IMG/VR virus record: IMGVR_UViG_3300031182_000053
Location: 1 to 51,699 of that record
DNA from: a virus
Taxonomy: Duplodnaviria; Caudoviricetes
Length of the DNA stretch: 51,699 nt
Reading direction: 5' to 3' (one strand)
Shown: positions 49,274 through 49,994 of the stretch, in pieces
Layout: the number at the start of each line of letters is the position of its first letter
Numbering within the stretch: the stretch's first letter is position 1
The notes under the pieces: generated by a model
The model's database searches: none
Told to the model about the DNA's origin: nothing
The model's input: only the letters and a program-made list of their open reading frames with translations
Translations under genes and position numbers: made by a program

Positions 49274-49741
49274 TTGGAGCAATTAAGCTTTCTCCCGGAA
49301 ATCGATCGAAGCAAGACGCAGGAGGCCGTGGAGCGCGCGCTGGAACAATACAGATATTATAAATTTCTCACGGAAGATGAGGAGGAGCGGGAGGCGAGCA
49401 CGACGGCAAGCTACAGCTTATCTCCCCGGGGTTACACAGGTACTACCAGCGACCAGACAGGGGATATCGCTGTCCACAACGTAGATAAGCAGATTCAACG
49501 GAGAAAGTATTGCGAGCGGATAGAGAGGGTCGTCCGCCGGATGCCCCGGATGGAACGGTTTCTGATCGAGGAACGATATTTGACCAAGGAACACGACTAC
49601 ATCACCGATCAGCACGTGTACAATTTTGTGTTCCAGCCGCCGATCAGCTCCGGAAAGTATGACAAGATTCGCTGGAAAGCCTTCTTCAAGTTAGCCTCCA
49701 ATCTGGATTTGATAGTGGAGAAAACGGGGAACGAGAAATGA
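49274..49741 (+). CDS. ArpU/RinA-family late transcription activator
   Basis: MEQLSFLPEID..., TTASY, ERFLIEERY, KAFFKLA. Confidence 0.88.
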   Translation: MEQLSFLPEIDRSKTQEAVERALEQYRYYKFLTEDEEEREASTTASYSLSPRGYTGTTSDQTGDIAVHNVDKQIQRRKYCERIERVVRRMPRMERFLIEERYLTKEHDYITDQHVYNFVFQPPISSGKYDKIRWKAFFKLASNLDLIVEKTGNEK

Positions 49742-49778
49742 GAAGGGGCAAGTTAACCAAGCCCCTTCTCATACCCTA
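49738..49778 (+). promoter_or_regulatory. 12-bp perfect inverted repeat overlapping a sigmaK/sigmaE-type -10
   Basis: ATGAGAAGGGGC/GCCCCTTCTCAT; CATACCCTA at 49770-49778. The -35 match is weak. Confidence 0.45.
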
Positions 49779-49796
49779 ATAGTGGGTGATGCAAAC

Positions 49797-49994
49797 ATGG
49801 GGAAAAGCAAAAAATCCTTCACGATTAGGTATCACAAGGTGTGTGATCAGGAAAAATCAGATGAAATCATTCGAGCCTTTGCCAAAAGAGCGATCATGAA
49901 AGCACTAGAAAATAACGGGGCTGTAGCGTACAATGTGGATGATGTTTTGCATAAATACATTTCGGGGGAAATGCGTAATGGTCATGAAAGATGA
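49797..49994 (+). CDS. Candidate recombination directionality factor (65 aa)
   Basis: Small basic ORF overlapping the integrase start; function inferred from position only. Confidence 0.55.
   Translation: MGKSKKSFTIRYHKVCDQEKSDEIIRAFAKRAIMKALENNGAVAYNVDDVLHKYISGEMRNGHER

Follow-up and report, generated by a model that had tools for sequence, protein, structure and literature searches.

A candidate recombination directionality factor behind a putative mother-cell promoter in prophages that split gerE of Paenibacillus

How might a prophage that has split a gene of the mother cell be taken out of it again, and what would give that step its direction? The question is raised by a stretch of 51,699 nucleotides (IMG/VR record IMGVR_UViG_3300031182_000053, positions 1 to 51,699; the whole stretch is called the window here), which holds an apparently complete myovirus-like (contractile-tailed) prophage of about 51.4 kb that interrupts gerE. 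Close to its right end a small open reading frame (ORF) of 65 codons lies between an ArpU-like gene and the gene of a large serine recombinase, the integrase (Table 1). An earlier note on this DNA had proposed that the small ORF encodes the recombination directionality factor (RDF) of the integrase and that a sporulation promoter precedes it. The four sequence elements of the note were recovered at its positions, and its interpretation is supported as far as computation reaches. The reading favoured here, to which a probability of roughly 0.6 is given, is that an RDF and a mother-cell promoter downstream of arpU lead to excision of the prophage in the mother cell and so rejoin gerE.

In B. subtilis, gerE is the gene of a late mother-cell transcription factor. 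Window bases 2-127 translate into the N-terminal part of a GerE-type regulator (Pfam GerE PF00196, E=8.7e-17, profile positions 3-42 of 57), and the remainder of the gene is found at the opposite end of the window. The two halves are in frame across a common 9-bp core, AACGTCATG, so that precise excision would restore an intact reading frame. Read from the sequence, this is an insertion by a large serine recombinase at about codon 50 of a 225-bp target gene. The split gene is judged to be of the mother-cell type from the gerE promoters of the hosts, which are of the sigmaK type. Loss of gerE leads to defective spores in B. subtilis (PMC5595907). The interruption of gerE, which the earlier note had not cited, gives a sporulation promoter a clear purpose. 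By eye, the phage-side arms beside both att cores also resemble imperfect inverted repeats.

The small ORF does overlap the start of the integrase gene, as had been claimed: the two genes have 17 nt in common, and 8 nt separate the integrase ATG from its ribosome site, GGGGGA. If the small ORF began at the in-frame GTG at 49782, its product would be longer by five residues, 70 in all. Pfam assigns the 65-residue product to no family (only DUF6204 appears, below threshold, with E=0.09), and its single PHROG match is phrog_15506, of unknown function (E=7e-6). A word-index homolog search gave four close relatives only, and an exhaustive profile search of 1.84 billion representatives was needed to obtain a small family, mostly from Paenibacillus, of 34 clusters (E<=1e-3), almost all of 54-115 residues; two long proteins with repeated partial matches were left out of it. 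The 10 clusters that were looked up come from Paenibacillus and carry the name 'hypothetical protein' or a blank.

The gene neighbourhood of this family is informative. Among 401 sampled Paenibacillaceae genomes, 22 match the small ORF, at 26 places. At 16 of these places, in 15 genomes, a recombinase homologous to the integrase (51-87% identity) lies directly downstream, and P. rhizosphaerae has the same arrangement. The working set, to which all counts of 16 refer, consists of the window and 15 loci; a locus near-identical to the window (L051) and a second identical copy in L044 were not included, and two weak matches with no tblastn match (L045 and L047, the latter with two stop codons) enter none of the counts. 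An overlap of 11-74 nt between the small ORF and the start of the recombinase gene is seen in 16/16 loci; in the window and in 15/15 related loci the small ORF thus has the location usual for an RDF gene, in the same element and near the integrase gene. Downstream of the recombinase, 14 of the 16 have the 3' part of gerE, within about 100 nt in 12 of them, after about 540 nt in L033 and after the second copy in L044; as for the other two, the P. rhizosphaerae contig ends inside the att site, and in L042 the available 1.6 kb contain no gerE. When 401 genomes sampled across the class were searched, one further copy appeared, G460, with the order arpU, small ORF, recombinase (56% identical) and gerE 3' part. 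The closest genomes by the small ORF are Paenibacillus phocaensis mt24 (100% identical, with an integrase 99% identical to that of the window by tblastn) and P. rhizosphaerae CECT 5831 (75%); apart from the latter, the small proteins of the loci are only 33-56% identical to that of the window. In four genomes the gerE 5' part lies on the same contig, 48-54 kb from the small ORF, and there too the prophages are therefore full-size. L044 (G282:C156:93515-100963) carries two identical small ORF-integrase modules 2.9 kb apart, with an attP-type junction after the first and the gerE 3' part after the second, and may represent a tandem insertion or a mis-joined assembly.

Structure prediction supplies a second line of evidence. 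The model of the small protein alone (pLDDT 79.9, built from a 35-sequence alignment) has an extended N-terminus (residues 1-17) followed by two helices (18-40 and 47-55). Comparison of the model with the PDB by Foldseek gave nothing at E<=0.001, and a profile search against PDB sequences gave nothing below E=0.14. For the complex, integrase residues 300-522 were combined with the small protein, each with a 16-row alignment in matched order. The ipSAE values, which express the confidence of the model and are not a measurement, were 0.74, 0.77 and 0.77, against 0.00 for all three controls. In the calibration of the tool, 116 of 157 solved complexes and 2 of 215 mismatched pairs attained the mark, a guide that is only rough here, since the alignments were custom-made. 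Between runs at least 83% of the contacts are common; the contacts number 127-138, and the partner pLDDT is at least 78. No protein of solved structure resembles the small one by sequence or fold, so that the score does not reflect a homologous complex known to the model.

In the predicted complex, residues 6-16 of the small protein run along integrase residues 514-522, the extreme C-terminal strand, while residues 28-37 pack on residues 469-485 and 381-401, the pair of helices from which the coiled coil springs, and on residues 362-376 of the zinc domain. The small protein is thereby placed, in the prediction only, at the junction between DBD2 (the zinc domain) and the coiled coil of its cognate integrase. 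All verified RDFs, whatever their fold, are predicted at this same junction, and most of them add a β-strand (PMC12286644). By this model the small protein probably binds the integrase where RDFs bind. The check that had been proposed, a structure prediction of the ORF-integrase complex, therefore came out in favour of the RDF claim (0.77 against a best control of 0.00), as did the start overlap found at every locus.

The small protein might instead be some other accessory of the lysogeny module, such as a small regulator or a DNA-binding protein, that travels with integrases. Eight family members, in L035, L036, L040, L046, L050, L008 and L026, have no adjacent serine recombinase, two of them being tandem paralogs in L035. 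In L036, and by sequence likeness in L050, the small gene lies between an XRE-type regulator and an HTH_17 excisionase-like gene, and in L040 an HTH_17 gene comes after it and a tyrosine integrase lies about 1.5 kb downstream. The family is not tied to serine recombinases only, and this counts against an RDF, together with the nature of the complex score given above. An accessory would also suit a protein without a Pfam family, with a PHROG match of unknown function and with an N-terminus that looks unstructured in the monomer. It would leave unaccounted for an extensive and reproducible interface that engages the DBD2/coiled-coil junction and the C-terminal strand when controls give nothing, as well as an overlap with the recombinase start in all 16 loci and a layout that is the same as that of skr-spoIVCA in the skin element of B. 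subtilis (PMC6957869). An accessory role appears quite improbable on this balance, and the 65-residue protein is very likely the RDF of the integrase.

If the small ORF encodes an RDF, the next question is what directs its expression. A mother-cell-type -10 element (CATA-N3-T) had been reported upstream of the ORF, and CATACCCTA at 49770-49778 agrees with it. When the upstream regions of the 16 loci are anchored on the CATA word, the four bases of CATA and a T as eighth base are the same in every locus, the middle three bases vary (ccc, gca, acc, aaa, caa, gaa, aac, gct), and position 9 is A in nine loci, G in six and T in one. The word is followed after 4-7 bases, a distance that can be called fixed, by GGTGAT and then the start codon. 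The family member of the P. larvae phage PBL1c is preceded by CATAAGATA, seven bases, GGGTGAT and a GTG start, and the G460 copy by the CATA-type word CATAGGGTT, which brings the total to 18/18 integrase-linked copies; at none of the eight family members that lack a neighbouring serine recombinase does CATA-N3-T occur 60 nt or less from the start. Several loci have in-frame stops between the word and the start codon, and the word is therefore not coding. Judged from these alignments, it is the most conserved non-coding feature of the locus.

The promoters of the hosts' own mother-cell genes offer a comparison. Their gerE promoters read cACC-N17-CATA(aga/ata)TG in three genomes and ACC-N17-CATAagaTG in a fourth, and their spoIIID promoters GAATAT-N14-CATATAAT in 5/5 genomes. 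The CATA word fits both mother-cell sigma factors, and with its purine-rich middle and TG/TA ending it looks more like the gerE (sigmaK-type) promoters. The host spoIVA upstream regions contain no recognisable CATA-type promoter within 200 nt and were not used. In the gerE and spoIIID promoters of the hosts (L053-L056, L061-L065), and likewise in front of the RDF gene, a C/T-rich stretch with a CCCT-like end lies just upstream of the CATA word. Other sigma factors were considered for the word. A sigmaA reading was rejected, since no locus has a T as third base of the hexamer that it would require, since it gives no reason for the invariant CA before that hexamer, and since a scan gave no sigma-70-type site there; a forespore (sigmaF/G) reading was set aside from the general consensus only. 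By the standard spacing between -10 and +1, a transcript would start near 49784.

Several points weigh against such a promoter. The form CATANNNTA occurs 10 times in the window against 15.0 +/- 4.1 expected, so that the -10 word alone is at chance frequency and its significance lies in the conservation among relatives only. The -35 region had been called unconvincing, and that judgement holds. In B. subtilis the consensus is AC at 16-17 nt for sigmaK and an ATA-type element at about 14 nt for sigmaE, and neither is found: the window has AAGT at -20 to -17, with AG where the gerE promoters of the hosts have AC, and compares poorly with the sigmaE-type GAATAT of their spoIIID promoters. AC stands at the gerE-promoter position in only 4/16 loci (L032, L037, L042, L044). 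The predicted start leaves a leader of only about 13 nt, beginning at the Shine-Dalgarno sequence (SD). Two public runs recorded or guessed as RNA contain under a tenth of the sampled words, with at most 9% in any run on record as RNA, and the public runs that hold the prophage DNA are contigs.

These points could be met by an arrangement in which the ORF encodes the RDF and the CATA word is no sporulation promoter; read-through from the early operon after induction would then be the only source of the RDF, and lysogens would simply live with a split gerE or would excise the prophage only on lytic growth. The poor -35 and the chance frequency of the word speak for such an arrangement, read-through is plausible past a hairpin that lacks a U-tract (see below), and the accessible part of the paper on integration of phage Xenia into gerE is silent on excision (PMC12453123). 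It does not explain why five positions of the word are invariant in 18/18 copies at a fixed distance from the SD when neighbouring sequences and proteins (33-56% identity) have diverged, nor why the word is absent from 8/8 paralogs or why a would-be sigmaA hexamer never has T as its third base. Nor does it account for the finding that gerE, without which B. subtilis forms defective spores (PMC5595907), harbours at least 14 independent elements. Read-through as the sole source of RDF is consequently considered unlikely. A mother-cell promoter in front of the small ORF is somewhat favoured, the strength of that claim coming from the conservation pattern and the gerE context and being held down by the poor -35.

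A conserved -10 with a poor -35 repeats the situation of sprB, the RDF gene of SPbeta. There the -10 is perfect and the -35 imperfect, transcription begins 20 nt ahead of the start codon, and SpoIIID, GerR or GerE is suspected to be required (PMC4191935). The repetition points to a common co-activator requirement. The word GGGCAAG at 49746-49752, at -24 to -18 from the CATA word, matches six of the seven bases of the SpoIIID core consensus GGACAAG (PMC11180830). A score of 6/7 at this fixed place is reached in only 4/16 loci, and the idea of a SpoIIID box is weak.

The same GGGCAAG lies in the 5' arm of an inverted repeat. The perfect 12-bp repeat without a U-tract that the earlier note described was recovered, with arms at 49738-49749 and 49761-49772, each of 12 nt and 100% complementary, and with the stem GAGAAGGGGC/GCCCCTTCTC. 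An 81-nt RNA (49725-49805) containing the stem has a folding energy of -28.7 kcal/mol (z = -3.5; 0/200 shuffles as stable), and a 52-nt segment that holds the stem and ends at the CATA word one of -22.1 kcal/mol (z = -6.1). The stem-loop is GC-rich as in an intrinsic terminator, but the U-tract of a terminator is lacking: a terminator scan did not flag the hairpin of the window, which has no T-run after it and three T in the next 12 bases, and none of the 16 loci has more than four T in the 12 bases after the stem. When the 52 nt up to the CATA word were folded at each locus, strong stems (-13.6 to -22.1 kcal/mol) were obtained in 10/16 loci and weak folding (-3.0 to -10.0 kcal/mol) in the other six, all of which keep the CATA word; PBL1c likewise keeps the word and, by eye rather than by folding, has no GC-rich stem before it. 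The stems differ between loci yet stay complementary, as in AAGGGCAAG/CTTGCCCTT of L031, GAGAGCATGG/CCATGCTCTC of L033 and GCAGGGGC/GCCCCTGC of L042 and L044. Nine of the ten strong stems come after an arpU homolog, and the stem of the window begins at the arpU stop codon.

A repeat that lies over the -35 region and spacer of a putative promoter might be an operator, the site of a dimeric repressor or activator, rather than an RNA structure. The SpoIIID-like word in its 5' arm (PMC11180830) would agree with this, and a co-activator of this kind is needed by spoIVCA, which is almost completely SpoIIID-dependent (PMC517825), and possibly by sprB (PMC4191935). The compensating changes, by which the stem is replaced by unrelated complementary sequences in L031, L033 and L042/L044, argue for RNA structure rather than a protein site. 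The loss of the repeat in six loci and in PBL1c, with the CATA word kept, and the SpoIIID-like word at only four loci speak against an operator too, which is thus very improbable. The patchy occurrence of the stem also indicates that it belongs to the upstream operon and not to the promoter. The hairpin is probably a structured 3' end of the early operon, acting as a 3'-end stabiliser or as a weak, leaky, U-less terminator. Of the earlier description, which placed the -10 element inside the hairpin, the overlap of stem and CATACCCTA stands, and the hairpin as a conserved part of the promoter does not. Separately, in a read-through RNA the small ORF would have its SD and its start codon flanked by a second inverted repeat (49775-49784 and 49820-49829; arms of 10 nt with 90% complementarity and a distance of 35 nt); a transcript from about 49784 would not carry the 5' arm of this repeat.

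Since the RDF and integrase genes are coupled, it is not obvious how integrase would be supplied without RDF, which is a further difficulty for the favoured reading. A candidate answer lies within the RDF gene itself, in the form of a sigmaA-like promoter. Taken alone this site is at chance level, being a 9/12 match in a 2.7-kb region with three sigma-70-type sites against 3.1 expected. A match of at least 9/12 recurs at the homologous codons in 15/16 loci, with 8/12 in L044. The last T of the -10 comes from an Asn codon, which is AAT in 15/15 cases when other Asn columns mix AAT and AAC, and the Asp codon before it is GAT in 5/5 when another Asp column mixes GAT and GAC. From there to the integrase start, over about 45 nt, third codon positions are nearly frozen (Lys AAA 14/14, Ile ATT 13/13, Val GTT 11/11), in part because of the overlapping ribosome site of the integrase. 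The Tyr codon of the -10 is TAC in 9/10 cases, though TAT would give a perfect hexamer, and this speaks against simple optimisation. There is moderate evidence for an integrase-only promoter and leader embedded in the RDF codons, like the sigmaA promoter of sprA (PMC6957869).

Taken together, these elements suggest the following scheme. To the observed anatomy, gerE split, family, synteny and motif conservation it adds the modelled binding and, as inferred parts, the sigma factor, its timing, the read-through and the integrase-only promoter. The N-terminal strand of the RDF would pair with the extreme C-terminal strand of the integrase, and its first helix would rest against the zinc domain and the base of the coiled coil; at that site it would permit attL x attR recombination, as proven RDFs do. 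The mother-cell -10, with a start near 49784 and a position downstream of arpU, would drive the RDF gene and, by translational coupling, the integrase, so that both could be made in the mother cell without the late activator. Excision would be confined to the terminal mother cell and would restore the reading frame of gerE there, and the prophage would stay in place in the forespore. The hairpin would limit, without abolishing (it has no U-tract), read-through from the early operon into the RDF gene, and this read-through would be the route of excision after induction. The weak sigmaA-like promoter inside the RDF gene would probably supply integrase alone for integration.

Table 1. Coordinates of the features in the window
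Feature	Position	Strand	Basis or remark
Host gerE, 5' part	1..127	+	Ends in attL core; window start inside gene; translation of 2-142
attL copy of 9-bp core AACGTCATG	119..127	.	Identical 9 bases at 51573-51581
ArpU-like late transcription activator, last gene of rightward early operon	49274..49741	+	phrog_248 'transcriptional activator', E=1.3e-33
Perfect hairpin, 12-bp stem and 11-nt loop, no T-tract	49738..49772	+	Spans arpU stop codon
-10-like element CATACCCTA, mother-cell (sigmaK/sigmaE) type	49770..49778	+	CATA-N3-T in 16/16 loci; predicted transcript start near 49784
Shine-Dalgarno GGGTGAT of small ORF	49784..49790	+	6 nt before ATG; GGTGAT kept in anchored alignment
65-aa candidate RDF ORF	49797..49994	+	ATG 49797, TGA 49992-49994; family, synteny, fold, complex score
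sigmaA-like promoter TAGAAA-17-TACAAT inside RDF gene (candidate)	49906..49934	+	Scan and conservation at homologous place
Large serine recombinase (integrase), 522 aa	49978..51546	+	Pfam PF00239, PF07508, PF13408 (Resolvase, Recombinase, Zn_ribbon_recom); phrog_95, E=1e-105
attR copy of 9-bp core AACGTCATG	51573..51581	.	Metagenome contigs switch sequence at core bounds
gerE, 3' part	51573..51653	+	In frame to stop codon; Pfam GerE positions 37-55 of 57

Public DNA shows the att site in other states. The stretch 49200-51699 was compared with contigs of four public DNA runs (X1, X2, X7, X8). An empty gerE site is present in 4/4 runs, as contigs that match the window from 51573 on and are preceded by gerE 5' sequence. 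A 565-nt contig of the compost run X7 follows the integrase 3' end to 51581 and continues into the left end of the prophage, which represents the attP junction of a close relative. The points at which the contigs switch agree with the 9-bp core. In run X2 the occupied junction and the phage DNA have a depth of 41.9 and the empty-site piece one of 109.5; these depths fit a mix of lysogens and non-lysogens and are no evidence on sporulation. The window itself may derive from runs X1-X6.

The DNA between the cores is phage DNA throughout, with genes for the small and large terminase, portal, protease, major head protein, sheath, tape measure, baseplate, fibre, endolysin and holin, and with a leftward repressor-like gene. 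The rightward early operon of 18 kb begins with a cro-like gene at 31227, continues with genes for antirepressor, RecT, replication, clamp, RuvC, methyltransferase and dUTPase and ends at the ArpU-like activator, whose syntenic counterpart in PBL1c carries an ArpU annotation. In the mostly leftward block from the lysis genes to the repressor (25229-31103), one gene resembles that of an ATP-dependent DNA ligase and another that of a superinfection-exclusion lipoprotein (phrog_4980).

That elements interrupting mother-cell genes can be excised under developmental control is already established. In the skin element, skr encodes a 64-aa RDF, overlaps spoIVCA and lies behind a sigmaE and SpoIIID promoter (PMC6957869). 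The locus described here shares with skr-spoIVCA an RDF gene of about 64 codons directly upstream of, and overlapping, the gene of a large serine recombinase, a mother-cell promoter (here a candidate) upstream of the RDF gene, and an excision that rejoins a mother-cell regulatory gene. Skin, in contrast, is a defective element, whereas the phage in the window is apparently complete; its overlap is 101 nt rather than 17 nt, and its target is sigK rather than gerE. Skr and the 65-residue protein are likened by layout and not by sequence.

The sprB gene of SPbeta, with which the earlier note had drawn a parallel, shows the same -10/-35 situation, but the closest precedent for the gene layout is skr-spoIVCA. 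In SPbeta, sprA and sprB are served by a sigmaE/K promoter and by a stress-induced route, and phi3T behaves like SPbeta (PMC6957869, PMC4191935). Both SPbeta and the element in the window are prophages in a mother-cell gene (SPbeta an active one) with an RDF sporulation promoter, here a putative one, of perfect -10 and imperfect -35 (PMC4191935, PMC6957869), and in both the RDF is found at the DBD2/coiled-coil junction (PMC12286644), here by prediction. Two features of SPbeta itself, a stress route to the RDF by read-through from upstream phage genes and an integrase with a sigmaA promoter, are those to which the proposed inputs are likened. SPbeta differs in its target, spsM; in the window the RDF gene overlaps the integrase gene and the putative sporulation promoter lies directly behind a hairpin. 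A tblastn search of 50,697 phage records with the 65-residue protein gave no match at E<=0.01, which is weak evidence, as the true PBL1c homolog was also missed and the search lacks the sensitivity that so short a protein requires.

The target gene is shared with the gin element of B. cereus ATCC10987, in which the recombinase GirC and the 42-aa GirX rejoin gerE (PMC5595907). Both elements use gerE, a 9-bp core and a serine recombinase with a small RDF, the latter a candidate here, and the sporulation-specific expression and rearrangement known for gin (PMC5595907) are what is proposed for the element in the window. The gin element, however, has no phage genes and three recombinases, and the gene of its shorter RDF does not adjoin girC. 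Its core, CATCTCAAA, lies a few bases upstream of the core AACGTCATG used here. The same paper mentions a prophage in gerE of B. glycinifermentans as untested (PMC5595907).

Phages of P. larvae provide the nearest comparison in gene order. A 2025 paper reports a Xenia variant integrated into P. larvae gerE with nine duplicated bases, and in its accessible part discusses neither an RDF nor sporulation excision (PMC12453123). The integrase of the window is 53.5% identical to that of Xenia. The Xenia/PBL1c group has the same order of arpU, small ORF and integrase, its small ORF is a member of the family, and CATAAGATA stands before the SD; it differs in that these are phages of about 40 kb, of the genus Fernvirus according to the PBL1c record, with no hairpin before the motif. 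In PBL1c (L057, MG727698, record 36104-36385) the small ORF, PBL1C_71, is annotated only as a hypothetical protein and with a longer reading frame, of 93 residues; it probably starts later, at a GTG after the ribosome site GGGGTGAT, which would give a family member of about 82 residues. The sequence after the PBL1c integrase contains a gerE-like word, CACATCTCCAAT.

Literature searches whose coverage excluded subscription journals and the supplements of PMC12286644 with their lists of predicted RDFs gave no relevant paper that joins recombination directionality factor, serine integrase and Paenibacillus; nor, again outside subscription journals, was a relevant paper found that joins Paenibacillus, gerE, prophage, sporulation and excision. 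What is new is the RDF family, a candidate one, and the widespread set of at least 18 elements; the kind of system itself is not new.

To our knowledge, RDFs of serine integrases cannot be found by sequence similarity, and each new family is therefore useful. Cognate integrase/RDF pairs serve as reversible switches in genome engineering, and the candidate pair described here exists in at least 16 natural versions and has a defined core of 9 bp within a target gene of 225 bp. Should the proposal be true, developmentally timed prophage excision would extend from Bacillus and Clostridioides to Paenibacillus, and to intact phages rather than relics, and a testable explanation would be at hand for how phages can insert into gerE without crippling the spores of their hosts. 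A fuller picture, which is put forward tentatively and seems less probable than the excision mechanism, is that a whole lineage of temperate Paenibacillus phages, including relatives in a honeybee pathogen, lands in gerE with a three-input switch within about 250 bp, composed of a leaky, structured operon end that lets lytic read-through pass, a mother-cell promoter set against this structure for RDF and integrase, and a sigmaA promoter in RDF codons for integrase by itself. One recombinase would then serve integration, lytic excision and silent excision in the mother cell only, and a phage would determine when the GerE-dependent spore-coat genes of these hosts are expressed.

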